64,000 bases of DNA from the NCBI GenBank assembly GCA_963844415.1, contig CAWJOA010000006.1, forward strand, positions 550,494-614,493, in the 5' to 3' direction. The position numbers and the translations under genes were made by a program. Below the pieces are notes generated by a model. It saw only the letters and a program-made list of their open reading frames with translations. It did no database searches and was not told the origin of the DNA. This DNA comes from an uncultured Chloroflexia bacterium (GTDB taxonomy: Bacteria > Chloroflexota > Limnocylindria > QHBO01). This document shows, piece after piece, positions 31,154 through 55,946 of this stretch; the stretch's first letter is position 1, and every line of letters starts with the position of its first letter.

Positions 31154-31188
31154 ACGGGCCGGCGCGAAGTATACCCGCTTCCCTGATT

Positions 31189-31207
31189 CGAACATTCGTT
31201 CTATATT
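31189..31207 (+). promoter_or_regulatory. LexA (Cheo-type) SOS box abutting a -10 hexamer upstream of imuA
   Basis: CGAACATTCGTTC (31189-31201) is followed directly by TATATT (31202-31207). The ATG is at 31217. Confidence 0.7.
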
Positions 31208-31216
31208 GGCGGTCCA

Positions 31217-32032
31217 ATGCCACGGACCGATGTCGCCGCTTCGCCGTCCCTGGCGAACGCCCTCGAGAGCCTCCGCGCTCGGGGCCTCGGGCTGCGTCGC
31301 GGCAGCGAGCCGGAGCCGCTGGAAGCCTCCCGGCCGGCCATCCCGAGTGGCCACCCCGCGCTCGATGCGGCACTGGCTGGCGGGCGGGGGAGCACCGGCG
31401 GCTGGCCGCGCGGCGCGCTCGCGCTGCTCGACGCACCCGTCGGCGGCGGGGCGACGACGCTGGCGCTGAGCGCGGTGGCGGCGACCCAGGCGGTCGGTGG
31501 GCTGGCGGCCTGGCTCGACCTCGACGGCACCTTCGACCCGGCCGTCGCCGCGTGCGGTGAGGTCTGCCTCGACTGGCTCCTCGTGGCGAGCCCGCGCGAC
31601 CCAGCCGAGGCGATCGAGCTCGCGGCCTGGCTCGGCCGCTCGGGGCTCATCGACGCGCTCGTCCTCGACCTCGGGGAGCGGGGCGTGCCGGATCGGCGGG
31701 CGCTGGACCGGCTCGGTTCGCTGCTGGCCCGCTCCGCGACGACCTCCGCGCTCGTCGTCGCGCCGGCCGGCCGCGTCGTCGCCGGGGCGGTGGCCGGCGT
31801 GCGGGTGGCACTGCATCGGTCCGCCTGGCTGGCGGTCGGGCGCGACCTCGTCGGGCAGCGCGTCCGGGCCACCGTCGAGCGGCATCGCTGGGCGCTGGCC
31901 GGCGGCACCGCGGAGCTCGACCTGTGGTTCGCGGAGGGGCGACGCATCGGTCCACTGCTGCGTGCGGTGGCCGAGCCACGCCCGATCGAGTCGGCGGAGG
32001 AGCGCCCGGCGCTCCAGGTGGTCGGGGCGTGA
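31217..32032 (+). CDS. imuA: ImuA-like (RecA-fold, SulA/ImuA family) mutasome component
   Basis: The call rests on position upstream of and coupled to imuB, and on a degenerate RecA-like P-loop region (LLDAPVGGGATTLAL). The family assignment comes from context plus fold-like motifs. Confidence 0.7.
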   Translation: MPRTDVAASPSLANALESLRARGLGLRRGSEPEPLEASRPAIPSGHPALDAALAGGRGSTGGWPRGALALLDAPVGGGATTLALSAVAATQAVGGLAAWLDLDGTFDPAVAACGEVCLDWLLVASPRDPAEAIELAAWLGRSGLIDALVLDLGERGVPDRRALDRLGSLLARSATTSALVVAPAGRVVAGAVAGVRVALHRSAWLAVGRDLVGQRVRATVERHRWALAGGTAELDLWFAEGRRIGPLLRAVAEPRPIESAEERPALQVVGA

Positions 32033-37311: not shown

Positions 37312-40300
37312 ATGGGCACGCCGGACGACTACTGCGAGCTCCACGCGCACACGAACTTCAGCTTCCTCGATGGTGCGTCGCATCCCGAGGAGCTGATCGC
37401 TCGCGCCGCGCAGCTCGGCATGCCGGCGCTGGCCATCACCGACCACGCCGGCCTGTATTCCGCCGTGCGTGCCTGGAAGGCGGCGCAGGAGACCGAGACC
37501 GATGCCGCCCACGCGGCGGGGCTGTCGCCGGTGCGCCCGATCATCGGCCTCGAGATCACCATCCCGCGCACCGATGACGAGCTGCGCCTCGCCCACCGCG
37601 GGCGGAAGCTGAACGAGCCGCTGCGAGGAGCGCGCGCGAGCCGCGGCTGGCCCGGCGAGTTCCACGCCGGACCGATGCCGGGCGACCACCTCGTCCTGCT
37701 CGCGCGAGACGTCGACGGCTACACCGCCCTCAGCCGCCTGGTGAGCCGTGGCCACCTGGCGGGCGAGAAGCAGTTCCCGGTCTTCGAGCGCGGGCAGGTC
37801 ACCGCCATCCTCGACGAGGCGCGCGGCCACCTCTTCGGCCTCTCCGGCTGCCGCAACGGCGAGGTGCCGCGGCACCTGCTGGCCGGCGACCGCGATGCGG
37901 CGCTCGACGCCGCCCGTCGCTGGGCGGGCCGCTTCGCCACCGACGACTTCGCCGTCGAGCTGTCGCATCACCTGCAACCCGACGACGACTGGCTGGTCGC
38001 CCAGCTGGCGGCGCTCGCCGACGAGCTCGGCCTGCCGACGGTCGTCACCAACGAGGTCCACTACGCCGATCCCGACGGGCACCGGCTCCAGGACGTCCTC
38101 GTCTGCATCCGCCATGGCGCGACGCTCAGCCGAGGCGCGCGAGCTGCTGCTGCCCAACGCCGAGTACCGGCTCAAGACCGGGGCGGAGCTGGCGGGCATC
38201 GGCGCCGGGCTGCCGGACGAGCGCAGCCGCCGTGCCTGGGCCGACGGCCTGGCGCGCAGCGCCGCCATCGGTGAAGCGTGCCGGCTGGAGCTCGGCTTCG
38301 AGCGCTATCGGTTTCCGGGCTTCAGCGTGCCCGAGGGGGAGACCGCGTTCTCATATCTCTACCAGCTTGCACACGACGGCTTACTGCGCCGTTACCGGCC
38401 GGTTACCACGCGGGCGCTGAAGCAGCTGGCGCACGAGCTCGACGTCATCGAGCGCACGAACCTCGCCGAGTTCTTCCTGATCGTGTGGGACCTGATGGAG
38501 TTCGCGCGGCGCGGCAAGATCATCGGCCAGGGGCGGGGGAGCGCCGGCGACTCGATCGTGGCCTACTGCCTCGGCATCACCAAGGTCGACCCGATCGCGC
38601 ACAAGCTCCTGTTCGAGCGCTTCATCAACGAGGCGCGCGCGTTGCCGGACATCGACATCGACTTCGACGTCAACCGGCGCGAGGAGGTCATCCAGTACCT
38701 CTACGAGCGGTACGGCGCCGATCACGCCGCCATGGTCTGCACGATCGTGACGTACCGCGCCCGGAGCGCCGTGCGCGAGGTGGCCAAGGCGCTCGGCTTC
38801 CCGCTCGAGGGGATCGACGCACTGGCCAAGGCGCTCGACACGCGCGAGGCCGGGGACGTGGCGCGGGACCTGGCGCTGGACGGGAGCTTTGCGTGGCTGT
38901 TCGACGAGCTCGGGATCGACATGGCCGCGGCCGCCGTCCCACCGGGCCGAGACGGTCGTGCCGACCCCGGCCTCGTGCGCAAGTCGTCGGACTCGTCGTG
39001 GAACCACCGGCCGCGGCCGATGCTCGATCCGCAGCCGGTCGGCCAGGGCCACTGGTCGCCGCCGCGCAAGCCGCGGGTGCTCGACGCATCGGTCACGACC
39101 GTGCGCCACGAGTCGGAGTCGACGAAGCGGTACGCGCGAAGCGGCGAGCTGGCCGGCGCGGAGCTGCGCGTGCCCGTGCCTCGCGACAACGGCTCGCCGG
39201 GGCCGTCGAGCGGGCGGCCGTCGCTGGTGCGCGTCGACCCGGAGTCGGGGATGCCGGTGGAGCCGCGGCGTCGCGTGCGGGTCGTGCCGGAGGTGCCGTG
39301 GGAGGGAGCGCAGGCCGACGGCATATCGCCACTAGTGGTAACGGGCAGCCAAAGTGGCGCCAAAGGGGGCCAGGGAAAGGGATTGGCGTCAGATTCCGCA
39401 CCGGAACCGGGTCAGAAGCTGTGGAAATCTCAGCCTTCAGATGCTGCTGAGGACGCAGCGGCGCCCATTCAGGTGCTACCTAACACTAGTGGCGATATCG
39501 CGGCGAGCAACGCCGCCACCGCCGCCACGCACGCTCCGAAGAACCGATGGCAGTGGCTGCTCCAGCTGTGTGCCGAGATCGACGGCTTCCCGCGCCACCT
39601 CGGCATCCACGTCGGCGGCATGCTCGTCACGAGGACCCCGCTCATCGAGCTCGTGCCGATCGAGCGCGCCACGATGCCGAACCGCGTCGTCACCCAGTAC
39701 GACAAGGAGGACGTCGAGCAGCTCGGCCTCGTGAAGATCGACATCCTCAGCCTGCGCACGCTGGGCGTGGTGAGCGACGCCCTCGACCGGATCGAGCGCG
39801 ACACCGGACAACGCATCGACCTCGACAGCCTCCCGCACGACGACCCCGAGGTGTACCGCGACATCCAGGCCGCCGACACGGTCGGCATGTTCCAGATCGA
39901 GAGCCGCGCCCAGATGCAGGCGCTGCCGAAGGCGCGGCCCGAGCGCTTCGAGGACCTCGTCGTGCAGGTCGCGATCATCCGCCCCGGCCCGGTGCAGGGC
40001 AACGCCGTCCACCCGTACCTCAGAAGGCGGGCCGGCGAGGAAGCGGTCACGTACGCCCACCCCGCACTGCAGCCCATCCTGGAGGACACCCTCGGCGTGA
40101 TCCTCTACCAGGAGCAGGTCATGCAGGTCGCGATCGAGGTGTGCGGCTACACCGCGGTCGAGGCCGACATCTTCCGCAAGGCGATGGGCTCTCACCGCAG
40201 CCACGCGAAGATGCAGGCCGAGCGCCCGCGCTTCATCGGTGGCGCCATGGCAACCGGCCTGACCGAGGAGCAGGCCGAGGAGCTCTTCCAGAAGTGCAGT

Positions 40301-41289
40301 CAGCCTTCGCCGAGTTCGGCTTCGCCCGCGCCCATGCCGCGGCCTTCGCGAAGATCGCCTACGACACCGCCTGGCTGAAGCGCTACTACCCCGCGCACTA
40401 CACCGTCGGCGTGCTCAACAACCAGCCGATGGGCTTCTACAGCCCGGCGGTCGTCATCAACGACGCGAAGCGCCACGGCATCGCGGTGCTGCCGATCGAC
40501 GTCAACGAGTCGGCCTGGGAGCACGACACGCGTCGCATCGGCGACGCGTGGGCCATTCGCCTGGGACTGCGCCAGGTGAAGGGCATCGACGAGCGCGCGC
40601 GCGAGGTCCTCGAAGCGGAGCGCCGACGCGGTCCGTATCGGTCCGTTCGCGACTTCGTGGCCAGAACCCGCCTTGGCGAGCAGGTCGTCGAGCGGTTGAT
40701 CAGCATCGGTGCCTTCGACTGGACCGATGCGCCCCGCCGCGAGCTGCTCTGGCAGCTGCGCACCACCCTGGCCGATGCCGACCCCGAGCATCCCGCGTTG
40801 GGCCTGACCGATGACGCCCAGCGCGCGCTCGGCGCGTCGCTGCCGCCGATGACGGCGGCCGAGCGGGTCGCCGCCGACTACCGCGACACCGGCGTCGCCC
40901 CGAACCTCCACGCCGTCGAGCTGTTCCGCGAGCGCCTGACGGCGCGCGGGGTGATCTCGATCGGCGAGGCGGCCCGGCGGCGCGATCGGTCCGTCATCCG
41001 GCTGGCCGGCCTGGCGGTCAGCGTCCAGCATCCGATGACGGCCAAGGGCTTCGTGTTCATCGCGCTCGAGGACGAGACCGGGATGATGAACGTGACCCTG
41101 CGACCGAACGTGTACCAGGCGCACCGGGCGCTGCTGCACCGCCATCCGCTGCTCGTCATCGACGGGCGGCTCCAGGTCGAGGGGAAGGTGCTCAACGTCG
41201 TCGCGATGCGGCTGCGTTCCGTGGACGAGGCGCTCGACGGTCCGTCCGAACAGCTGCCGCTGGCCAAGCAGCAGCGAATGTTCCGCTAG
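37312..41289 (+). pseudogene. dnaE2: error-prone DNA polymerase III alpha (DnaE2), two reading-frame breaks as assembled plus a long internal insert
   Basis: Has a PHP domain (CELHAHTNFSFLDGAS), a pol III alpha core (GRGSAGDSIVAYCLGIT...DIDIDF) and fingers (RHLGIHVGGM...FQIESRAQM), plus an OB fold near the C-terminus. The pieces lie in three frames, with junctions at about 38126-38133 and about 40290-40300. Confidence 0.9.
39323..39499. repeat. 177-bp lower-GC segment bounded by perfect 15-bp inverted repeats (MITE-like), in frame inside dnaE2
   Basis: The arms are ATATCGCCACTAGTG (39323-39337) and its exact reverse complement CACTAGTGGCGATAT (39485-39499). By hand count the interior is about 60% GC. 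Confidence 0.6.
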
Positions 41290-45727: not shown

Positions 45728-45754
45728 CGGCGCCGATTCTAGACTCGCCGGCGG

Positions 45755-46726
45755 TCAGCGGCGACCGAGCAGGTCGATGAGAAGCGCCTCCTGGACGTAT
45801 CGGCGGTTCTCGGCCTGCTCCAGCGCCAGCGACCGCGGCCCATCGAGCACCGCCGCGCTGATCTCCTCACCGCGGTGGGCCGGCATGCAGTGCATCGCCA
45901 TGACGTGGGGCGCGGCGCCGGCCAGCAGCGCCTCGGTGACCTGGAAGCCGGCGAAGCGCGCGCGGCGCTCGTCGGCCTCGGCCTCGCGGCCCATGCTGGC
46001 CCACACGTCGGTGTAGACCGCGTCGGCGCCGGCCACGGCGGCGGCCGGGTCGGTGCCGATGCTGACCCGCGCGCGGTGTCGTCCTGCGAGCGTCCGGGCG
46101 CGGGCGACGACGGCCGGGTCCGGCGCGTAGCCCGGCGGCGTGGCCACGCGCAGGTCGATGCCTGCCAGGGCGCCGGCGAGCAGCAGCGAGTGCGCGACGT
46201 TGTTCCCGTCGCCGACGTAGGCGAGGGACAGGCCGGCGAGGCGGCCGAATCGCCGGCGAAGCGTGAGCAGGTCGGCCAGCGCCTGGCACGGATGCTCCGC
46301 ATCGGTCAGCGCGTTGACGACCGGGACGGTGGCGGCGGCCGCCATCTCGAGCAGGGTCTCGTGGGCGAACGTGCGCAGGACGATCGCGTCGACGAGCCGC
46401 GACAGGTTGCGGGCAACGTCGGCCGGCAGCTCGCGCCGGCCGAGGCCGACCTCGTCGGGACCGAGCGCGATCGCGTCTCCGCCGAGCGAGGTGACGGCGA
46501 CCTCGAAGCTCACCCGCGTCCGCAGGGAGGGCTTCTCGAACAGGAGCGCCACCTGGCGGCCAGCGAGCGGCCGCAGCGGGAGCGAGGCTCGATCGCTGCG
46601 CAGCTGCTCGGCACGGTCGAGAAGGCGGGCGAGGCCAAGGCCCTCCAGGTCCTCGGCACCGAGCAGGTGGCGAGCCGGCAGCGCGGCCCCGCGGGCAGGG
46701 CTCGACGGTGCGACGCGGGTCGTCAT
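45755..46726 (-). CDS. argF: ornithine carbamoyltransferase
   Basis: FEKPSLRTRVSFE, HPCQALADL and DVWASMG motifs, plus the ornithine-binding HCMPAHRGEE. The ATG at 46726 overlaps the argD stop. Confidence 0.93.
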   Translation of the reverse strand: MTTRVAPSSPARGAALPARHLLGAEDLEGLGLARLLDRAEQLRSDRASLPLRPLAGRQVALLFEKPSLRTRVSFEVAVTSLGGDAIALGPDEVGLGRRELPADVARNLSRLVDAIVLRTFAHETLLEMAAAATVPVVNALTDAEHPCQALADLLTLRRRFGRLAGLSLAYVGDGNNVAHSLLLAGALAGIDLRVATPPGYAPDPAVVARARTLAGRHRARVSIGTDPAAAVAGADAVYTDVWASMGREAEADERRARFAGFQVTEALLAGAAPHVMAMHCMPAHRGEEISAAVLDGPRSLALEQAENRRYVQEALLIDLLGRR

Positions 46727-47925
46727 GCGGCGGCCGCCTCGCCGAGCGCGGCACCGATCCGTTCCAGCGCCATCTCCACCTCCGTCGCGCTGATGACGAG
46801 CGGCGGGACGAGGCGCAGGGTCGTATCGCCGGTGGCGTTCACGAGCAGCCGGTGACGGTCGCGGGCGATGGCGACCGCCTGCCGCGCGATCGGTCCGGCC
46901 GTCTCGACGCCGATCATCAGGCCACGCCCGCGGATCGCGGTCGCCAGGCCGGCGGTCACGAGGCGCTCGAGGCCGGTCGCCAGCTGCTCGCCGCGCTCGC
47001 GGGCGTTGGCCATCACGTCGCCCTCGTCGATGGCGCGCAGCGTCGCCAGCGCGGCGGCGCACGACAGCGGGTTGCCGCCCAGCGTCGTGCCGTGGTCGCC
47101 GACCTCGAAGGCGGCCGCCGACTCGCGAACGAGCAGGGCTCCGATCGGGACCCCGCCGGCAAGGCCCTTGGCCAGCGTGACCGCGTCGGGAACGATCGGC
47201 GACTGCTCGAAGGCGAAGAACGTGCCGGTGCGGCCGACGCCGGTCTGGATCTCGTCGAGGATCAGCAGCGCGCCGACGCGGTCGCAGGCCGCTCGCGCGG
47301 CGATGAGGAACTCGTCGGTCAGTGGGTGGATGCCGCCCTCTCCGAGGATCGGCTCCAGGAGCACGGCACAGGTGGCATCGGTCACGGCGCGCTCGAGCGC
47401 AGCCACGTCGTTCGCCGCCACGTGGCTGAAGCCGCCCGGCAGGGGAGCGAATGGCTCCTGGTACTTCGGCTGGCCGGTGGCGGCCAGCGACCCGAGGGTG
47501 CGCCCGTGGAACGAGCCGACGAGGCTGACGACCTCGTGCGCGCCGCGCTCGCCACCGTGACGCCGGGCGAGCTTGATCGCCGCCTCGTTGGCCTCGGTGC
47601 CGGAGTTCGTGAAGAAGGCGCGGTCGAACGGCGAGCGCGCGACCAGGGCCTCGGCGAGCTCGAGCTGCGGCAGGGTGTAGTAGAGGTTCGAGACCTGGAG
47701 CAGCGTCGCCGCCTGGCGGGCCACCGCGGTGGCAACCGCCGGGTTGGCGTGCCCGAGGACGTCGACCGCGATCCCGGCCACGAGGTCGAGGTACTCGACG
47801 CCGGCGTCATCGGTCACCCAGCAGCCACGGCCGGAGATCAGCGTCAACGGCTGGCGGGCGTACGTCTGGAGGTGGACCCTGGCCTCGCGCTCCGCGACAT
47901 CCGAGGTCGGCGACACGGCGCTCAC
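46723..47925 (-). CDS. argD: acetylornithine aminotransferase
   Basis: Class III aminotransferase with GTEANEAAIKLAR, LILDEIQTGVGRTG and the PLP-Lys context TLAKGLAGG. The GTG at 47925 overlaps the upstream TGA. Confidence 0.92.
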   Translation of the reverse strand: MSAVSPTSDVAEREARVHLQTYARQPLTLISGRGCWVTDDAGVEYLDLVAGIAVDVLGHANPAVATAVARQAATLLQVSNLYYTLPQLELAEALVARSPFDRAFFTNSGTEANEAAIKLARRHGGERGAHEVVSLVGSFHGRTLGSLAATGQPKYQEPFAPLPGGFSHVAANDVAALERAVTDATCAVLLEPILGEGGIHPLTDEFLIAARAACDRVGALLILDEIQTGVGRTGTFFAFEQSPIVPDAVTLAKGLAGGVPIGALLVRESAAAFEVGDHGTTLGGNPLSCAAALATLRAIDEGDVMANARERGEQLATGLERLVTAGLATAIRGRGLMIGVETAGPIARQAVAIARDRHRLLVNATGDTTLRLVPPLVISATEVEMALERIGAALGEAAAA

Positions 47926-48431
47926 AGGTCCAGGGCCATCGCGTGGCCGACGCCCGAGCGGGCCGGCCACGGGACGCGGTCGGCGTGCAGGATCTCGGGA
48001 AGGTCGCCCATCGGCAGCTCCGTGAACCCGTGACGGGCGAAGTAGCCAGGATTGCGGGTGACCGCGAAGAGACGGCCGATGCCGTGCTTGCGCGCGTCGC
48101 GCACCACGGCGTGGACGAGTGCCTCCCCGAGGCCCAGTCCGTGCGCCTCCGGCGTCACGCTGAGCGATCGCAGCTCACCGATGTTGTCGCCGAAGTCCCG
48201 CAACGTGGCGCAACCGACCACCTCGTCGTTGAACTGGGCCACCCACCACGTGTCGATCGCCTCCGTCACCTCCTCCCGCGTCCGCGGCAGGAGGACGTGG
48301 GCCGCGACGTAGATGTCGATGACCTGGAGGATGCGGTCGACGTCGGCGATCCGCGCGCGCCGCACGTACGACGCGCCCGCGGTGAGCGGCGAGATCGTGC
48401 CGACAGTCCGGAGGTCGTTCCGGCGCGTCAT
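47922..48431 (-). CDS. single-domain GNAT acetyltransferase inside the arg operon (candidate short-form N-acetylglutamate synthase)
   Basis: GNAT core (RSLSVTPEAHGLGLGEALV...). It is translationally coupled on both sides, to argG and argD. The function is inferred from context. Confidence 0.65.
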   Translation of the reverse strand: MTRRNDLRTVGTISPLTAGASYVRRARIADVDRILQVIDIYVAAHVLLPRTREEVTEAIDTWWVAQFNDEVVGCATLRDFGDNIGELRSLSVTPEAHGLGLGEALVHAVVRDARKHGIGRLFAVTRNPGYFARHGFTELPMGDLPEILHADRVPWPARSGVGHAMALDL

Positions 48432-49705
48432 CGGACCGCCTCCGCCGGATCCGGAGCAGCGTCCGCGCGGTCCGCGCCGAGCTCCGCGAGCAGCGAGCGC
48501 GTGCCCTCGACGCCATCGCGGGCGGCGGCCTGCGTCCGCACCGGCAGGCCCCAGATGGCGATGAAGCCGACCGCGGAGGCATGGTCGAACCGGTCGCCGG
48601 TGTCGTAGGTGGCGAGGCCGACGTCGTACAGCGAGTGCGGGGACCGACGCCCGGTCACGGCCAGGCTGCCGGCCGTCAGCCGCACGCGCACGTCGCCGCT
48701 GACGAAGCGCTGGGTGTGCGACACGAAGGCGCGCAGCGCGACGCCGAGCTCGCTGAGCCACAGGCCGTCGTAGGCGAGGGTCGCGAGCCGATCGCCGACG
48801 GAGCGCTTGTAGGCGAGAAGCTCGCGCGACAGGGTCAGCTGCTCGAGCGCCGCGTGCGCGGCGTGCAGCACCACCGCTGCCGGCGCCTCGTAGATCTCGC
48901 GGCTCTTGATGCCGATGAGCCGATCCTCGACGTGGTCGATCCGCCCCACGCCGTAGGCTCCGGCCTCGCGGTTCAGGGTCTCGATCAGGCGGACCCCGTC
49001 GAGCGCCTCGCCGTCGAGCGAGACCGGCACGCCGGCCTCGAAGCCGATGACCAGCTCGCGCGCCGCTCGCGGTGCCTCGGCCGGGTCGGCCGTCCACTCG
49101 AACGCCTCCGGCGGCGGGGCGACCCACGGGTCCTCGAGCACGCCGGCCTCGATCGACCGGCCCCACAGGTTGGCATCGATGCTGAACGGCGAGCTCGGCC
49201 CGCTCGGGACGTCGATGCCGCGCTCGCGCGCGTAGGCGAGCTCCTCGTCGCGGGTCATCCCCATCCCGACGCGCATCGGGGCGATGACGCGCAGGCTCGG
49301 GTCGAGTGCCGCGACGGCGACATCGAAGCGCACCTGGTCGTTGCCCTTGCCAGTGCAGCCGTGCGCCACGAGGCCGGCGCCTGACTCGTGTGCGGCATCG
49401 ACGAGCAGCCGCGCGATGAGGGGGCGGGCGAGAGCGGTGGCCAGCGGGTACTGGCCCTGGTACACCGCCCCGGCCTGGAGCGCGGGCCAGACGTACTCCG
49501 TGACGAAGGCCGCTCGCGCGTCGACGACGATCGCCCGGCGCGCCCCGCCGGCCAGTGCGCGGCGCTGCACCGCGGCGGCATCGACGCCGCCACCGACGTC
49601 GGCGGTCAGGGTGACGACGCCGAGGCCGTGCGTCTCGCGCAGCCACGGCACGGCGACCGAGGTGTCCAGGCCGCCGGAGTAGGCGAGGACGACGGTCTCG
49701 CTCAT
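48428..49705 (-). CDS. argG: argininosuccinate synthase
   Basis: AYSGGLDTS ATP-PPase motif and the GCTGKGNDQVRF motif. Confidence 0.95.
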   Translation of the reverse strand: MSETVVLAYSGGLDTSVAVPWLRETHGLGVVTLTADVGGGVDAAAVQRRALAGGARRAIVVDARAAFVTEYVWPALQAGAVYQGQYPLATALARPLIARLLVDAAHESGAGLVAHGCTGKGNDQVRFDVAVAALDPSLRVIAPMRVGMGMTRDEELAYARERGIDVPSGPSSPFSIDANLWGRSIEAGVLEDPWVAPPPEAFEWTADPAEAPRAARELVIGFEAGVPVSLDGEALDGVRLIETLNREAGAYGVGRIDHVEDRLIGIKSREIYEAPAAVVLHAAHAALEQLTLSRELLAYKRSVGDRLATLAYDGLWLSELGVALRAFVSHTQRFVSGDVRVRLTAGSLAVTGRRSPHSLYDVGLATYDTGDRFDHASAVGFIAIWGLPVRTQAAARDGVEGTRSLLAELGADRADAAPDPAEAVR

Positions 49706-50202
49706 CGCTCGACCTCCGCCGTGACGGTGGCGCGGGCGGCATCGGCGACGATCGCCTCGAGCCGTTCGCGGAACCGCCGCATCGCGCCGGCGTCGGCGCA
49801 GGCAACGAAGATCGTGTCGTCGCCGGCGATCGTGCCGACGACCTCGTCCCACGCCGACAGGTCGACCGACGAGGCGATGGCGTTCGCCGCGCCCGGCGAC
49901 GTGCGCAGCACGACGAGCGGGGGCGCCTCGGCGATCGTGAGCGGCAGGTCGGCCAGCAGCCGTCGGAGCCGGTTCTCGGCGGCCGCCGCCGCGCCCTCGG
50001 TGACGTCGTCGGGGAGCAGGTAGGTGAGGCGTCCGCCGCGCACCCCGCGCACCACCCCGAGACCGGCGAGGTCGCGCGAGACCGTTGCCTGGGTGACGTC
50101 CATCCCGCGCTCGGCGAGCGCGGAGACGAGATCGGCCTGGGTGCGGATCGTGCCGGTCGCGATCAGCCGTCGGACGAGATCGCGCCGCTCGAAAGTGCTC
50201 AT
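49702..50202 (-). CDS. argR: arginine repressor
   Basis: Winged-helix N-terminus (IRTQADLVSALAERGMDVTQATVSRDL). The C-terminal arginine-binding domain shows the GTIAGDDTIFV motif. Confidence 0.9.
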   Translation of the reverse strand: MSTFERRDLVRRLIATGTIRTQADLVSALAERGMDVTQATVSRDLAGLGVVRGVRGGRLTYLLPDDVTEGAAAAAENRLRRLLADLPLTIAEAPPLVVLRTSPGAANAIASSVDLSAWDEVVGTIAGDDTIFVACADAGAMRRFRERLEAIVADAARATVTAEVER

Positions 50203-50221
50203 CGGTTCGTCTTCCTCTCGG

Positions 50222-51001
50222 TCAGGTACTTCCGGCGCGCGCCACCCGCGCGCCCGTCACGGTGGTCCCGGTCATCGCGCCGTCCAGCGCATCGCGCACG
50301 GCCGCCGGGTCGGTGCCGTCCACGATCGAGACCGAGCAGCCGGCCGTCGCCGCGGCGAGCGCGGCGCGCAGCTTGGGGATCATCCCGCCCGACGCCGAAC
50401 CGTCTGCGAGCATCGCCTCGGCCTCGTCGGCGCCGAGCGTGGCGAGGAGGCGGTCGCCACGGAGCACGCCGCGCACGTCGGTCAGCAGCACGAGCCGGCC
50501 GCCGCGGGCCGCCGCGATCGCGCCGGCCACCTCGTCGGCATTGACGTTCAGCAGCTCGCCGTCGGTGGACAGCGCGATCGGCGCGACGACCGGCACCAGC
50601 CCCGCGGCGGCGAGCGCGGCGAGGAGCCCCGTGTCGACACGCGTGATCCGCCCGACGGCGCCGAGCCGCGGGTCGAAGCGCTCGGCGGTCAGGAGGCCGC
50701 CGTCGGCACCGCCCAGCCCGATGGCCGGCACGCCGGCGGCCACCAGCCTCGCGACGAGCCGCGCGTTCGCCAGCCCGCGGAGGACCGCGATCGCCACCTC
50801 GAGGGTCCCCGGATCGGTCACACGCAGGCCGTCAATCGTCGCCGGCTCGTGGCCGAGGCGGCGCGACCAGTCGGCGACGTCGTTGCCGCCACCGTGGATC
50901 ACGACCCACCCCGCCGCGGCGCGGGCGGCGAGCTCATCAATCGACGCGGTGTGCGCGCCGGCCACGCCGCCGAGCTTGATCGTCAGCGGACCGTCGCTCA
51001 T
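50222..51001 (-). CDS. argB: acetylglutamate kinase
   Basis: AAK family: IKLGG..., VVIHGGG, NVNADEVAG. Confidence 0.92.
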   Translation of the reverse strand: MSDGPLTIKLGGVAGAHTASIDELAARAAAGWVVIHGGGNDVADWSRRLGHEPATIDGLRVTDPGTLEVAIAVLRGLANARLVARLVAAGVPAIGLGGADGGLLTAERFDPRLGAVGRITRVDTGLLAALAAAGLVPVVAPIALSTDGELLNVNADEVAGAIAAARGGRLVLLTDVRGVLRGDRLLATLGADEAEAMLADGSASGGMIPKLRAALAAATAGCSVSIVDGTDPAAVRDALDGAMTGTTVTGARVARAGST

Positions 51002-52188
51002 GTCGTGTACTCGCTGTTGATGGCCACGTACTCGGCCGACAGGTCGCAGCCCCAGGCGGTCCCGCGCCCGGGACCGCCGCCGAGGTCGAGCGCGAGCGTG
51101 ACGACGTCCGCGCGGAGGGCCGCCTCGGCGCCGGGCGCGTCGAACTCGACCGGCCCCGCGTCGTAGACCGCCACGTCACCGATGCGGATCCGCAGCCGGT
51201 CGGGATCCAGGGGCACCCCGCTCCGCCCGGCGGCGGCCGCGATGCGACCCCAGTTCGGGTCCCCGCCGTGGACCGCGGACTTCACGAGCGGCGAGCTTGC
51301 CACGGTGCGCGCCGCCGTCCGTGCCGCGGCATCGTCGGGGGCGCCGGCGACGGTCACCTCGATCAGGTGCTGCGCGCCCTCGCCGTCGGCCGCGATCGCG
51401 ATCGCGAGCTCGCGGCACACGTCCTCGAGGGCCGCATCGAATCGATCCAGGTCATCTCCGCGCTCGAGCGGCGCGGAACCGGCGGCGCCGTTGGCGAGCA
51501 CGAAGACCGCGTCGTTCGTCGAGGTGTCGCCGTCGACGGTGACCTGGTTGAACGTGCGGTCGACGATCGGCCCGAGCCGCGCCTGGAGCACGGCCGAGGT
51601 GATCGGTGCATCGGTCGTGAGGAAGGCGAGCATCGTCGCCATCTGCGGATGGATCATCCCCGCCCCCTTGGCCATGCCACCCACCCGCAGCGCCGTGCCG
51701 TCCGCGAGCGTCGCGGTGGCGGCGGCCTCCTTCGGACGCGTGTCCGTCGTCATGATCGCCCGAGCCGCGGCTGTCCCGGCCGCCGGCGACGCCTCGACCG
51801 CGAGGGCCCCGATTGCCTCGCGCATTGCGTCGACCGGCAACGTCGAGCCGATGAGTCCCGTGGAGGCGGGGAGCACCTCGTCCGGCGCGCATCCGACGCG
51901 CTCCGCGACCGCAGCGACCACCGCTCGCGCGTCGGCGATCCCGCCGCTGCCGGTGCCCGCGTTCGCGCTGCCGGCGTTGACGACGACGGCCCGCGCCACC
52001 CCGCCCGACGCCGCGAGCGCCGCCTCCGCCACGAGAACCGGTGCGGCCCGGAACCGGTTCGTCGTGAACGTCGCGGCCGCGCTGGCGGGCCCGTCGGACA
52101 CGAGCAGCACGAGGTCCGGCCCGCCCGAGGCGCGGATCCCGGCTTCGGCCACGCCCACGGCGAAGCCGTGCGCCGCCGTCACGCTCAC
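50998..52188 (-). CDS. argJ: bifunctional glutamate N-acetyltransferase / amino-acid acetyltransferase
   Basis: ArgJ autoprocessing site context (HPQMATMLAFLTTDA) and overall ArgJ pattern. Confidence 0.93.
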   Translation of the reverse strand: MSVTAAHGFAVGVAEAGIRASGGPDLVLLVSDGPASAAATFTTNRFRAAPVLVAEAALAASGGVARAVVVNAGSANAGTGSGGIADARAVVAAVAERVGCAPDEVLPASTGLIGSTLPVDAMREAIGALAVEASPAAGTAAARAIMTTDTRPKEAAATATLADGTALRVGGMAKGAGMIHPQMATMLAFLTTDAPITSAVLQARLGPIVDRTFNQVTVDGDTSTNDAVFVLANGAAGSAPLERGDDLDRFDAALEDVCRELAIAIAADGEGAQHLIEVTVAGAPDDAAARTAARTVASSPLVKSAVHGGDPNWGRIAAAAGRSGVPLDPDRLRIRIGDVAVYDAGPVEFDAPGAEAALRADVVTLALDLGGGPGRGTAWGCDLSAEYVAINSEYTT

Positions 52189-53207
52189 GGGTGCACCCCC
52201 AGCGACGACAGGCCGGCGGTCTCGTCGAGGCCGAGGACGGCGTTCATGTTCTGGATCGCCTGGCCCGCGGCGCCCTTGCCGAGGTTGTCGATGACCGAGA
52301 CGACCACCGCCCGCCGATCACCGACCGCCCTGGCGTGGACGAAGGCGTGGTTTGAGCCGGTCGCCTGCTTGGTGGCGGGCGGCGCATCGGTCACGTGGAC
52401 GAACGGCTCGGGGTCGTATGCGTCGTGGAGCACGCCGGCGAGCGCGGCGTCGTCGAGATTGTCGCGCAGCGACAGGTAGCAGGTCGCGTGCAGGCCACGC
52501 GACTGCGGGACGAGGTGCGGCACGAACGTGACCGGCGTCCCGGCGGCGCCGGCATCGGCCAGGCCCTGCTCGATCTCGGGGCGGTGGCGGTGGCCGCCGA
52601 GCGCGTACGCGCGGGTCGACTCGGTCAGCTCGGTGAACAGGTAATCGGCCCCGGCGTTGCGGCCCGCGCCGCTGATGCCGGACTTCGCGTCGACCACGAC
52701 CTCTCCGTCGAGCGCGCCGCAGCGCGCGAACGGCGCGAGCGCGAGCAGCGCGGCGGTCGGGTAGCAGCCGGGGTTCGCGACGAGCGACGCGCCGCCCAGG
52801 TTCTCGCGGGCCCACTCGGTGAGGCCGTACACCGCGCCCTCGAGCAGCTCGGGTGCCGGATGCGGGCCGCCGTACCACGTCGCGTAGGCGTCCGGGTCAC
52901 GGAGGCGGAAGTCGGCGCCGATGTCGATGACCGTCACGCCGCGATCGAGCAGTCGCGCGGCGAGGGGCGCCGAGGCGCCGTGCGGGAGGGCCAGGAACGC
53001 GACGTCGACGTCGCCCGGCTCCTCGTCGTCGACGGCGAGGTCCAGCGGCGCGAGGTGGGGATGGTCCTCCGCCAGTGACCGGCCGTGGCGCTCCCGCGCA
53101 TGGACCGATGCGATCCGCGCCCGCGGATGGCCCGCCAGCAGGCGAACGAGCTCGCCACCGGCATACCCGCCGGCGCCGACCACCGCGACCCGGATCGGGG
53201 CGGTCAT
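52185..53207 (-). CDS. argC: N-acetyl-gamma-glutamyl-phosphate reductase
   Basis: VAVVGAGGYAGGEL Rossmann motif and catalytic Cys context (ANPGCYPTA). The ATG at 53207 overlaps the argH stop. Confidence 0.93.
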   Translation of the reverse strand: MTAPIRVAVVGAGGYAGGELVRLLAGHPRARIASVHARERHGRSLAEDHPHLAPLDLAVDDEEPGDVDVAFLALPHGASAPLAARLLDRGVTVIDIGADFRLRDPDAYATWYGGPHPAPELLEGAVYGLTEWARENLGGASLVANPGCYPTAALLALAPFARCGALDGEVVVDAKSGISGAGRNAGADYLFTELTESTRAYALGGHRHRPEIEQGLADAGAAGTPVTFVPHLVPQSRGLHATCYLSLRDNLDDAALAGVLHDAYDPEPFVHVTDAPPATKQATGSNHAFVHARAVGDRRAVVVSVIDNLGKGAAGQAIQNMNAVLGLDETAGLSSLGVHP

Positions 53208-54595
53208 GGCGCGAGCCGTTGTCGCGCGACCGCGAGCGCGGCGCGAACCCGGGTCGGCGCGGTCCCGCCGTGGACGTCGGCGGCGGCGACGGCCTCCTCG
53301 AGGGTCGGCCGGACGGCGCCGTCGAGCTCGGGAAGTGCCGCGCGCAGGTCGTCCTCGGGCAGGTCGGACAGGTCGAGCCCGCGCCCTTCGGCATCGGCCA
53401 CCAGGCGGCCCACGCGGCGGTGCGCGTCGCGGAACGGGACGCCCCGCGCGACGAGGCGGTCGGCCAGCACGATCGCACCGGTGTGGCCGGTCGCCGCGGC
53501 GGCGCGCATCCGCTCGCGATCGAAGGCGACGCCGGCGACGACGCCGGTCATCACCTCGAGGCAGAGGCGCGCCGAGGCGAGGGCCTCGAGCATCGGTCGC
53601 CGCGTCTCCTGGAGGTCGCGGTGGTAGGCGAGGGGCAGGCCGCGCGGGACCGTGAGGATGACGAGCAGGTCGCCCTCGACCCGTGCGGCTCGGGCGCGGA
53701 CGAGCTCCGCGGCGTCGGGGTTCCGCTTGTTCGGCAGCATCGAGCTGCCGCTCGAATAGGCATCGGCGAGGCGGGCGAATCCGACGTACGGCGTCGCCCA
53801 CAGGACCAGCTCCCCGGCGAGCCGCGAGAGGTGGCCGAGCAGGATCGCGACGGCGGCGACGGTCTCGGCCGCGTAGTCGCGATCGGAGACCGCATCGATC
53901 GAGTTGTCGGTCACGCCGCCGAACCCCAGCGCGGCCGCGACCCGAGCGCGGTCGATCGCGAGCCCGGAGCCCGCCACCGCGCCCGACCCCGCCGGGCTGC
54001 GGTCGGCGCGGCGGGCGGCATCGGCCAGGCGGCCCGCGTCGCGCTCGAGCATCTCGACGTAGGCGAGCAGGTGATGCGCGAGCAGGACCGGCTGCGCGGG
54101 CTGCGTGTGGGTGTGGGCGGGCACGATCACGTCTGCCTCGGCCTCGGCGCGATCGACGAGCGTCAGCTGCAGTGAGCGGATCCCTTCCTGAAGGTCCGCC
54201 ACGGCCGCGGCCAGCCAGCGCCGCTCGTCGGTCACGACCTCCTCGTTCCGGCTGCGACCGGCCTGGAGCATCCCGCCGAGCTCCGGGCCGACGGCGTCGA
54301 TCACGGCCGCCTCGACGTTCATGTGGATGTCCTCGTGCTCGACACGCCACGCGAACGTGCCGGCCGCGATCCGGCTCGCGGCTTCGTCGAGCGCGGCGTC
54401 GAGGCGGGCGGACTCGGCGGCGTCGATCAGCCCGAGGCGCTCGAGCTCCGTGACGTGGACCCGGCTGGCGGCGACGTCGGCCGCGGCGAGCGGGAGGTCG
54501 ACCTCGAGCGTGCCGCTCAGTGCCAGGGCGGCATCGGCGGCTGCGTCGCGGAATCGGCCTTCCCACAGGGGAGCCTGGCGGGGTGAGGGAGTCAT
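53204..54595 (-). CDS. argH: argininosuccinate lyase
   Basis: Fumarate-lyase signature SSMLPNKRNPD and overall ASL pattern. Confidence 0.95.
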   Translation of the reverse strand: MTPSPRQAPLWEGRFRDAAADAALALSGTLEVDLPLAAADVAASRVHVTELERLGLIDAAESARLDAALDEAASRIAAGTFAWRVEHEDIHMNVEAAVIDAVGPELGGMLQAGRSRNEEVVTDERRWLAAAVADLQEGIRSLQLTLVDRAEAEADVIVPAHTHTQPAQPVLLAHHLLAYVEMLERDAGRLADAARRADRSPAGSGAVAGSGLAIDRARVAAALGFGGVTDNSIDAVSDRDYAAETVAAVAILLGHLSRLAGELVLWATPYVGFARLADAYSSGSSMLPNKRNPDAAELVRARAARVEGDLLVILTVPRGLPLAYHRDLQETRRPMLEALASARLCLEVMTGVVAGVAFDRERMRAAAATGHTGAIVLADRLVARGVPFRDAHRRVGRLVADAEGRGLDLSDLPEDDLRAALPELDGAVRPTLEEAVAAADVHGGTAPTRVRAALAVARQRLAP

Positions 54596-54598
54596 CGA

Positions 54599-54636
54599 GT
54601 TGAGTATTCATACACTCTCGTGCATCATCATGCAAC
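54599..54636. promoter_or_regulatory. tandem ARG boxes (candidate ArgR operator) in the argH / carA divergent region
   Basis: The 18-mers gtTGAGTattcATACAct (54599-54616) and cgTGCATcatcATGCAac (54619-54636) are separated by 2 nt. The second is a perfect TGCAT-N4-ATGCA palindrome. A TATGAAT -10-like element on the minus strand lies inside box 1. Confidence 0.55.
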
Positions 54637-54767
54637 CGAGCGGCCGTCCGCGACGCGAATGGGCGGACGCTCCGACGCGCGCGGACCGGCGTGCGCGCCG
54701 ACGAATCGACTACACTCACGGCGGTCCTTTAAGACCGGCACCGTGATGCCGGAAAGGAGCGAGGTCC

Positions 54768-55946
54768 GTGCAGACGATCATCCCCGCCACGGGGCGCGAG
54801 GCACCTGCCGCAACGCGGCTGGCTGCCGGCTTGGCGGATGGCGTCGAACGCCCACCGGACGGCCTGCTTGCCCTCGCACGCGGACTCGTGCTGCGCGGCT
54901 CGCTCCGCGGCGATCCGGTTGCGGCCGAAGGCGACCTCATCTTCACCACCGCCGCCACCGGCTGGGGCGAGATCCTCACCGATCCGTCATACGCCGGCCA
55001 GATCGTCGTCCTGACGCACCCGATGGCGGGGAGCTACCGGATCGCAGACGACGAGCTGGAGTCGGCCCGTGTCCACGCGCGAGCGCTCGTCTGCACCCGG
55101 CTGGTCACCCCGCCGCCCGGTCCAGGTCGCGCCCTCGAGGACGTCCTCGTCGAGGCCGGCATCCCGGCCGTGACCGGGGTCGACACGCGTGCACTGACCC
55201 TGGAGCTCCGCAGCGGCGGCGAGCGGCGGGCGGTCGTGCTGCCCGCCGGCCCGAGCGACGACGAGGCGGTCGGCGCCGCTCGCGAGGTCGTGGCCTGGGA
55301 GGCGGTCGATCACGTTGCCGGAGTCGCCACGCGGCGGCCCTACACGGTCGCGCCCACCGGCGAACGGCGGGCGCGGGCGACGCTCGTCGACTACGGCGTG
55401 AAGCGCTCGCTCCTCACCGCGCTCGCGGGGCGAGGGCTCGAGATCACCGTCCTGCCGCACGACGCGAGCGCCGCCGACGTCTCCGCGACCGGGGCCGACC
55501 TCATCGTGCTCTCGCCGGGACCCGGCGACCCATCGCGGATGGAGCCGCAGATCGCCACCGTCGACGAGCTGGCGCGGAGCGCGGCGGCCGGCGGGACGCC
55601 GGTCCTCGGCGTCTGTCTCGGCCACCAGCTCCTCGCCCTGGCCGCCGGGGCGGAGACGCGGCGGCTGGCCGTCGGCCACCACGGCGGCAACCACGCCGTG
55701 CTGGAGGCGGTGACCGGACGCGTCGACATCGGCGCCCACAACCACGAGGTCGAGGTCGTCGACGGACCCGAGCTGGCCGCGGCCGGCTACGCGGTCAGCC
55801 ATCGCGACCTGAACGACGGCACCGTCGAGGGCCTGGTCCATGTGAGCGGCCGGATCGCATCGGTCCAGTTCCATCCGGAGGGCGCGCCCGGACCGACCGA
55901 CGCGACTCGCGTCTTCGACCTGGCCATCGCGGCAGCCCTCGGGTGA
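54768..55946 (+). CDS. carA: carbamoyl-phosphate synthase small (glutaminase) subunit
   Basis: EILTDPSYAGQIV and the triad region GVCLGHQLLALA...HHGGNH...QFHPE. The GTG at 54768 follows AAAGGAG. There are about 30 extra N-terminal residues relative to what I expect. Confidence 0.9.
   Translation: MQTIIPATGREAPAATRLAAGLADGVERPPDGLLALARGLVLRGSLRGDPVAAEGDLIFTTAATGWGEILTDPSYAGQIVVLTHPMAGSYRIADDELESARVHARALVCTRLVTPPPGPGRALEDVLVEAGIPAVTGVDTRALTLELRSGGERRAVVLPAGPSDDEAVGAAREVVAWEAVDHVAGVATRRPYTVAPTGERRARATLVDYGVKRSLLTALAGRGLEITVLPHDASAADVSATGADLIVLSPGPGDPSRMEPQIATVDELARSAAAGGTPVLGVCLGHQLLALAAGAETRRLAVGHHGGNHAVLEAVTGRVDIGAHNHEVEVVDGPELAAAGYAVSHRDLNDGTVEGLVHVSGRIASVQFHPEGAPGPTDATRVFDLAIAAALG

Follow-up and report, generated by a model that had tools for sequence, protein, structure and literature searches.

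A palindromic DNA segment at a fixed position in the dnaE2 gene of Candidatus Limnocylindria

The window analyzed here is a stretch of 64,000 nucleotides of contig CAWJOA010000006.1, from an uncultured bacterium of the Limnocylindria (Chloroflexota). It encodes the error-prone DNA polymerase DnaE2, and within the dnaE2 gene lies a 176-bp unit bounded by perfect 15-bp inverted repeats (Table 1). On balance, we interpret this unit as the local version, with a rare arm type designated W, of an old palindromic DNA segment that belongs to the dnaE2 locus of Candidatus Limnocylindria and has been remodelled via its own repeats. Homologous inserts occupy the same fixed position in orthologous genes, and their core is found in both orientations and in several reading frames. 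The two ends of the insert covary without strand bias, the GC content at third codon positions (GC3) is low throughout, and one version of the insert has been replaced by another at this site.

The inverted-repeat unit and its homologues in related genes

The first-pass annotation of the window had described a unit of 177 nt, or 59 codons, between perfect 15-bp inverted repeats. The repeats are exact and the left arm stands where it had been placed (39323-39337); the right arm, however, occupies 39484-39498 instead of 39485-39499, and the unit measured from arm to arm (39323-39498) is 176 nt long, which is not divisible into whole codons. Its interior measures 146 nt rather than about 147, and the peptide quoted for the unit, 60 residues long, covers 39320-39499, that is, 180 nt. 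A 10-nt palindrome, CCACTAGTGG, lies at 39329-39338, mostly within the left arm, and the palindrome GCGATATCGC at 39492-39501 overlaps the right arm. Because the arm cores are palindromic, the arms double as a 9-nt direct repeat, CACTAGTGG (39330-39338 and 39484-39492).

The composition of the unit sets it apart from its surroundings. The interior has the 60% GC estimated earlier, between flanks of higher GC; the whole unit has 58%, against a window mean of 72.3% (standard deviation 3.9), and is the lowest-GC 176-nt stretch in the whole 64 kb. GC3 is 0.52 in the insert and 0.95 in flanking dnaE2. The suspicion that CTAG, which is present in both arms, is generally avoided was borne out: the window has 11 CTAG sites where 50.5 are expected, an approximately five-fold depletion (100 of 100 shuffles had more), so that the two sites in the arms stand out. 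The depletion is consistent with known CTAG avoidance or with a restriction system. As had also been noted, the unit is open in the dnaE2 frame alone; the other five frames contain 2-4 stops each, and dnaE2 continues beyond the insert in the frame that it had before it. There is no target-site duplication, again as first described, for the flanks (GACGGC on the left and CGCGGC on the right, with GGC and CGC at the junctions) share no direct repeat, and a reading of TA/TA as a target site is indistinguishable from the repeat itself.

The nearest relatives of this dnaE2 are in metagenome-assembled genomes (MAGs) of Candidatus Limnocylindria (Chloroflexota), according to their source labels. Across 89 orthologues, the linker between the conserved residues ..RVVPE and HAPKNRWQWL has 40-150 residues in about 50 proteins and 10-30 in about 35. 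The long linkers look dissimilar, yet they occupy one fixed codon position. We compared the DNA of 11 long inserts and one short allele. All of the long inserts have a core in common (GGTAAATCT..GC) and terminal inverted repeats of their own; they also have the motif CCTAAC toward the right end, and most have CGTTAGG toward the left. The CCTAAC of the window recurs in inserts of the common type, within their inner right repeat. A profile built from the orthologues, with the window excluded, has its best match in the 64 kb at 39416-39441 on the plus strand, inside the element. GC3 is 0.48-0.70 in all 11 inserts, compared to 0.86-0.95 in flanking dnaE2. Among the matches listed in a search of genome contigs, most were distant DnaE genes and two loci (L009 and L010) gave usable inserts; in another locus (L008, 73% identity) no linker was recognised, and it was used solely as additional Limnocylindria DNA in the copy searches.

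Judged by length, the repeat in the window is unremarkable. Perfect inverted repeats of at least 15 nt with a spacing of 20-400 nt arose in 31 of 100 first-order Markov simulations of the GC-rich 64-kb window that we searched with our own inverted-repeat scan, and a general listing of the 25 longest repeat pairs in the window, filled by longer imperfect GC-rich pairs, does not include it. When the AT-rich composition of the arms is weighted, the pair becomes the most improbable inverted repeat in the window: it scores 33.1 bits, whereas 200 simulations average 25.2 and none goes beyond 31.9. An independent assembly (locus L088) has these arms as well, and chance and assembly artefact are thereby ruled out.

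These results bear on the simplest alternative, namely an ordinary hypervariable, disordered linker with a chance repeat, or an artefact of long-read MAG assembly. Besides the frequency of such repeats by length, the state of the assembly speaks for it. The gene runs in three frames: compared with L001 (the closest relative) and L006, it has one surplus C at 38130/38131 and a surplus CA at 40301-40302; the two insertions sum to a net +3, and unpaired indels of 1-2 nt separate the window from L001 about every 1-2 kb. Related long-read assemblies are frameshifted too, at different places, and the frameshifts in dnaE2 are probably long-read indel or assembly errors, possibly linked to a motif, rather than marks of a pseudogene. 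Against this alternative stand the composition-weighted test, the arms of L088, the covarying terminal repeat that every long orthologous insert has for itself (12 elements) and a GC3 that in every lineage falls far short of the host gene's value. We regard it as already refuted, with next to no probability remaining. As a separate observation, the hexamer TCAGCC arises at both insertions in dnaE2; it is also part of the element core (39430-39435) and is mildly over-represented in the window (60 sites, 41 expected).

Many short alleles keep remnants of the arms (SSQIPT/SRQESG, DNPxxVWQN, ESSPILTG), and in L006 the right end of an L001-like insert is all that remains. Thus, loss by untidy deletion is frequent. 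The empty sites that an alignment of DnaE2 orthologues might reveal are represented by these short alleles, which are deletion remnants and not clean empty sites. In the common type, a quasi-palindrome of about 26 nt forms each end of the insert (e.g., CAAATGCTC-ACCACGG-GAGCGTTAG), and one end can be read as a copy of the other in direct as well as inverted orientation. The inserts of L003 and L004 are 77% identical, close to the 81% identity of these loci at four-fold degenerate sites.

Duplications were observed as well. In L089 (564-945; protein P0110), two clearly diverged full units stand in tandem and are followed by an extra right end (..HHAGIWQE..HHASIWQE), and the right end is also repeated in P0048, P0095 and P0108. 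Short tandem coding repeats adjoin the palindromic insert in L010 (11486-11530), P0050/P0051 and P0095, with the forms (GATGGCGCG)n, read as (DGA)n, ATDATDATD and TSNATTSNATTSNAT. The part of the linker beside the insert is slippage-prone too.

Orientation, exchange and pairing of the ends

When a profile of the forward core was run against whole loci, the top match in L001, L005, L009 and L090 fell inside the insert and on the minus strand. The individual E-values of the four matches are 0.07-3, and all lie within the same target of about 100 nt. In-silico inversion of forward inserts recovers the peptide motifs of the natural reverse types: RRFRFTEV in the inverted form corresponds to RRHRFTDS and LRHRIAEI in natural ones, and SVNLC to SVNLGL. 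The core is translated with K-S in the window and L088, with V-N-L in L002, L003 and L004, and with R-F-T in the reverse types (e.g., L090). Since the core occurs in either orientation and in different frames, what is conserved is the DNA and not the peptide. In a neighbour-joining tree built from the flanking protein, short, forward, reverse and W states are intermixed, which implies several flips and losses. If the window element is inverted it acquires three in-frame stops, and four of nine inverted elements (those of L004, L088, L089a and L090) stay open.

The rare W arms are carried by the window and by L088, a separate assembly whose DnaE2 has 77% protein identity to that of the window. 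The arms of L088 are ATCGCCACTAGTGGT on the left and CTAACACTAGTGGCGAT on the right. The left arm matches that of the window (L088 744-758) at 13 of 15 nt plus the following GT, and the right-arm sequence CTAACACTAGTGGCGAT is identical. The interior of L088 has the same length of 146 nt, with an ungapped identity to the window of only about 35-60%. Conservation of the W arms thus far exceeds that of the interior, even at synonymous positions. L001 is 85-100% identical to the window along the gene (about 90% overall). Its insert is of the common type and in reverse orientation, and across this segment the similarity to the window drops to the random level (Table 1). The near relatives of L088 likewise carry the common type. 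The replacement relative to L001 and the common-type neighbours of L088 indicate that whole versions have been exchanged or replaced at one site.

Both orientations, together with inverted repeats at the ends, recall an intragenic invertible cassette, in which the arms would be recombination sites and a flip of the 146-nt interior would recode the thumb loop of the polymerase or truncate DnaE2 (by three stops in the present case). The W arms of the window and L088 agree in sequence and spacing around a diverged interior, and the arms of the window are perfect and have a palindrome in each, as expected of protein-binding sites. The inverted window form has three stops and the inverted forms of L004, L088, L089a and L090 are open, which would match the "premature stop" and "recoding" kinds of intragenic inverton that have been documented (Chanin et al., PMC10028968). 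However, no recombinase or invertase is encoded within about 10 kb, no close pair of sequences differs by a flip alone, four open forms in nine is not clearly above chance for this composition, and in most lineages the arms are degenerate or imperfect or the element is lost. We consider such a cassette improbable. Somewhat less credence still goes to the idea of a conserved DNA device whose arms serve for recombination or binding, the cassette being able to invert or to extrude hairpins and thereby switching the polymerase among intact, recoded and truncated states.

To compare the ends, 12 elements were aligned in a common orientation (alignment A2). The ends pair on one diagonal over about 30 positions; 79.6% of the cells are paired, against 60% in shuffled alignments and about 38% with a slid partner, and in 12 of 13 pairs both partners have changed. 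Covariation reaches a score of 0.55 (compared to 0.25), which none of 500 shuffles attains. Mismatches on the plain diagonal are evenly divided between G-T (16) and A-C (14), revealing no bias toward an RNA strand. An apparent excess of G-U over A-C mismatches (15 to 3) was rejected as an artefact of the choice of pairs by RNAalifold.

Covariation of a closing stem could also reflect a structured RNA in the dnaE2 mRNA that regulates translation or mRNA stability. When folded, as the first-pass annotation had proposed, the unit does better than shuffled sequence (z = -3.9 and -5.4). We nonetheless disfavour this explanation and hold it to be very improbable. The asymmetric core runs both with and against the direction of transcription, no conservation is seen in the interior, Rfam has no match inside the element even at E = 10, and a scan found no promoter-like or terminator-like site. 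The balance of the two kinds of mismatch, the two core orientations, and the lack of Rfam matches and of promoter-like or terminator-like sites argue instead for a palindrome at the level of DNA, the arms of which change in concert.

Copies, known systems and the history of the insert

As to whether the insert belongs to a mobile family, the first-pass annotation had called for a search for copies of the unit and its arms. None turned up in any search that was run. There is no second copy in the 64-kb window, and the arms do not recur in the fetched loci, which total about 1.5 Mb and include about 200 kb of Limnocylindria DNA. An exact-arms pattern (CGCCACTAGTG-N{131,161}-CACTAGTGGCG) had zero matches in 596 Gb of species-representative genomes, among which the genomes of the window and L088 are evidently not included. 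A peptide scan of the representative library returned three unrelated repeat proteins (two of them by way of an LWKRQPG-like motif only), a word-index peptide search returned nothing, and a search with the linker and its flanks returned six fragments only. No transposase, recombinase or invertase was found within about 10 kb (genes at 28.4-45.8 kb); an invertase may be encoded elsewhere.

The sole match of the arm pattern among JGI metagenome contigs, in the AT-rich L007, was rejected as chance, the palindrome CGCCACTAGTGGCG recurring there in a tandem repeat. This repeat (L007 1100-1320, about 170 bp) has the palindrome TTCGCCACTAGTGGCGCTA in each unit, a coincidental likeness of sequence. 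Several other identities were tried and set aside. GTTAGG and CCTAAC resemble the core sites of an integron attC in reversed order; an intein would have about 130 residues or more, compared to 59-60 in the insert, in which no peptide is conserved across types and the junction residues vary; and an intron or a clamp-binding motif was rejected on length, missing motifs and the variability of frame and orientation.

The initial proposal was an insertion resembling a miniature inverted-repeat transposable element (MITE), tolerated within a coding region. It holds insofar as the unit has a foreign, non-coding look and inverted-repeat ends and stays open in a permissive, non-conserved part of DnaE2. 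It does not hold for an insertion private to this genome, as homologues lie at the same site in many Limnocylindria dnaE2 genes, with neither a second copy in the searches made nor a target-site duplication. The proposal was to be given up for a segment of ordinary composition, present at one position in all relatives and lacking other copies. The position is indeed shared by relatives and no other copies were found, but the composition is not ordinary, and about 40% of orthologues lack the segment or have a truncated one.

A more specific version of this proposal is a MITE family, active or recently active, that prefers this site in dnaE2, with independent insertions in different lineages that could take either orientation. 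Terminal inverted repeats, small size, an AT-richer composition and the lack of coding capacity agree with it, as do the differences in presence and version among close relatives, the W arms shared by two clades and the two diverged tandem units of L089; in-frame MITE insertions are also known, for example as Rickettsia palindromic elements (PMC10969869). Opposed to it are the missing target-site duplication, the absence of another copy from the 64 kb and about 200 kb of related DNA, the empty result of the 596-Gb scan, a metagenome match that proved unrelated, the absence of the peptide from proteins elsewhere in the searches made and of a transposase nearby, and short alleles that are untidy remnants instead of clean empty sites. 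An active family of this kind seems unlikely to us.

Rickettsia palindromic elements are multi-copy, with 44 insertions in R. conorii that lie in unrelated genes, and each family has a conserved peptide. The dnaE2 insert is like them and like in-frame MITEs in being a palindromic, non-coding-looking element of about 100-180 bp that lies in a conserved gene and is read through in a permissive part of the protein (PMC10969869). It differs in having one known locus, in presenting the same DNA core in three combinations of frame and orientation, and in conserving no peptide across types. With bacterial MITEs (Correia, ERIC, Nezha), it shares terminal inverted repeats, small size, an AT-richer composition than the host, the lack of an open reading frame of its own and presence/absence polymorphism; unlike them, it was found without target-site duplication, second copy or matching insertion sequence, and it keeps an orthologous position across a bacterial class. 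Intragenic invertons offer another parallel, as the pair of inverted repeats is wholly intragenic, both orientations are seen and a flip would recode or stop the protein (PMC10028968). Here, however, orientations differ between lineages only, the arms are degenerate in many lineages and there is no invertase within about 10 kb.

In sequence anatomy, the ends of the common insert type resemble REP/REPIN doublets and the hairpin ends of PATEs derived from IS200/IS605: they are quasi-palindromes of about 26 nt in direct and inverted copies, with a GTTAG/CTAAC motif beside the hairpin and no target-site duplication. REPs and REPINs are extragenic, number tens to hundreds of copies and occur with a RAYT gene. 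The dnaE2 insert is intragenic, its arms have no further copies in the fetched loci, and no RAYT gene was found with it, although none was sought genome-wide. A last comparison is with a mutational process. In the genetics of Escherichia coli, template-switch mutagenesis at quasipalindromes can perfect imperfect inverted repeats in one event and can invert the intervening DNA. Template switching would yield paired, seemingly compensatory changes without strand bias, as in the arms of the dnaE2 insert; being a process and not a family of elements, it leaves the identity of the W arms across distant lineages unexplained. By analogy, the insert appears to work most like the in-frame palindromic elements of Rickettsia or intragenic MITEs, with an anatomy resembling that of an intragenic inverton. 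In copy number, target-site duplication and peptide conservation, it does not qualify as a MITE or a Rickettsia palindromic element.

Under our favoured reading, that of an old segment remodelled through its own repeats, the insert would most likely go back to a MITE/REP-type element, small and with hairpin ends, either selfish or non-coding, that was captured in frame. The ribosome would read through it and produce an unconstrained spacer peptide, and selection on DnaE2 would demand only the absence of stop codons and a frame-compatible length. The sequence could then drift at approximately the synonymous rate and retain a composition like that of non-coding DNA. Its own inverted repeats would steer the changes that followed: both ends would be kept complementary through concerted change of the arms, by intramolecular template switching or gene conversion, and the interior would have been flipped several times. 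Some parts would have been lost, which would account for the short alleles and their remnants of arms, and others would have become tandem duplicates; whole versions would have been swapped between lineages.

Some observations weigh against this history. The evidence for flips relies on a short core with individually weak E-values (0.07-3), and no pair among the sequences sampled differs by a recent, clean inversion. No complete Limnocylindria genome, that of the window included, was searched for diverged copies, and low-copy relatives elsewhere are possible. The W arms are identical between the window and L088 (15 and 17 nt) at the same spacing, around an interior near saturation; drift combined with homogenisation within the element does not explain such identity across lineages, which hints at a sequence-specific constraint. 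The low GC3 persists class-wide, which is odd for an old, translated and otherwise neutral segment in a genome of 72% GC. In addition, W inserts occur in two separate clades, the nearest relatives of which have the common type, a distribution that requires horizontal exchange or mobility. Because the identity of the W arms, the class-wide low GC3 and the patchy distribution of W do not fit simple drift, the invertible cassette and the site-preferring mobile element remain viable.

The host polymerase, its surroundings and the meaning of the insert

In an alignment to solved Pol III alpha structures, residues 237-473 of the query DnaE2 face residues 526-554 of the Pol III alpha subunit of Thermus aquaticus (2hpi), or about 28 residues. 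The DnaE2 of Limnocylindria thus has a lineage-specific thumb loop of about 210 residues, and the element lies at the C-terminal end of this loop. The conserved part of the loop (about 160 residues) is basic, rich in Pro, Gly, Ser and Arg and normal in GC3; the Pol III alpha subunits of Thermus and E. coli have about 28 residues there. An AlphaFold model of the central 723 residues was uninformative (mean predicted local distance difference test score of 36), and the linker is predicted to be disordered solely from its composition and non-conservation.

Table 1. Coordinates of dnaE2 and of features in and around the insert (window positions)
Feature	Position	Strand	Description
dnaE2, error-prone DNA polymerase	37312-41289	+	PHP + Pol III alpha + HHH_6 + OB
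Conserved, normally composed part of the loop	38840-39319	+	Conservation from alignment A1
Segment without detectable similarity to L001	39300-39510	+	Sliding identity/alignment; blastn breakpoints 39304 and 39509
Left arm, ATATCGCCACTAGTG	39323-39337	.	15 nt; starts the unit
Interior	39338-39483	+	146 nt, 60% GC, GC3 ~0.5; dnaE2-frame translation VTGSQSGAKGG...IQVLPN
Possible relic of a common-type left arm, GCAGCCAAAGTGGCGCC vs GGCCAAATTCCAACC	39345-39361	+	Tentative; placement by MAFFT in alignment A2
Conserved core, GGAAATCTCAGCC	39423-39435	+	Family consensus GGTAAATCT..GC; forward here, read W-K-S-Q
CCTAAC motif	39479-39484	+	Adjoins the right arm on its inner side; alignment A2, columns 162-168
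Right arm, CACTAGTGGCGATAT	39484-39498	.	Exact reverse complement of the left arm

A second variable site lies in DnaE2 after ..NESAWEHDTR (about 40,600-40,650 in the window). Here P0008 (L005), P0009 and P0028 have an insertion of about 60 residues that is absent from the window and lacks similarity to the linker element. Its CxxC...CxH pattern suggests that it is a small module that binds zinc. Upstream of dnaE2, at a distance of about 5 kb, the window encodes a RecA-fold protein of about 280 residues (31187-32032) that is conserved in L001 and replaced in L002 by a larger RecA_N protein; it is probably the ImuA-like partner of a mutagenesis cassette. Synteny with L001 is broken by about 9 kb unique to the window (45,750-54,900) and resumes at 54,924.

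In practical terms, inserts of this kind make the linkers of DnaE2 look unalignable and can be mistaken for assembly errors. If our interpretation is correct, the insert would be a clean, naturally occurring instance in which palindromic DNA of a non-coding kind has long been retained as part of an important protein, in several frames and in both orientations, and it would bear on the birth of disordered protein linkers and on how they are tolerated. A coding region would then have evolved under the influence of inverted repeats, whose arms change in concert and which bring about flips, deletions and swaps; such effects are normally discussed for intergenic repeats only. The host gene is a polymerase of SOS mutagenesis. 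If the arms are functional, they would constitute a structural DNA switch tied to the control of mutation rate in an abundant, uncultured soil lineage. Such a switch, with a flipped form that carries three stops in the window, would provide Limnocylindria populations with heritable and reversible control of damage-induced mutagenesis.

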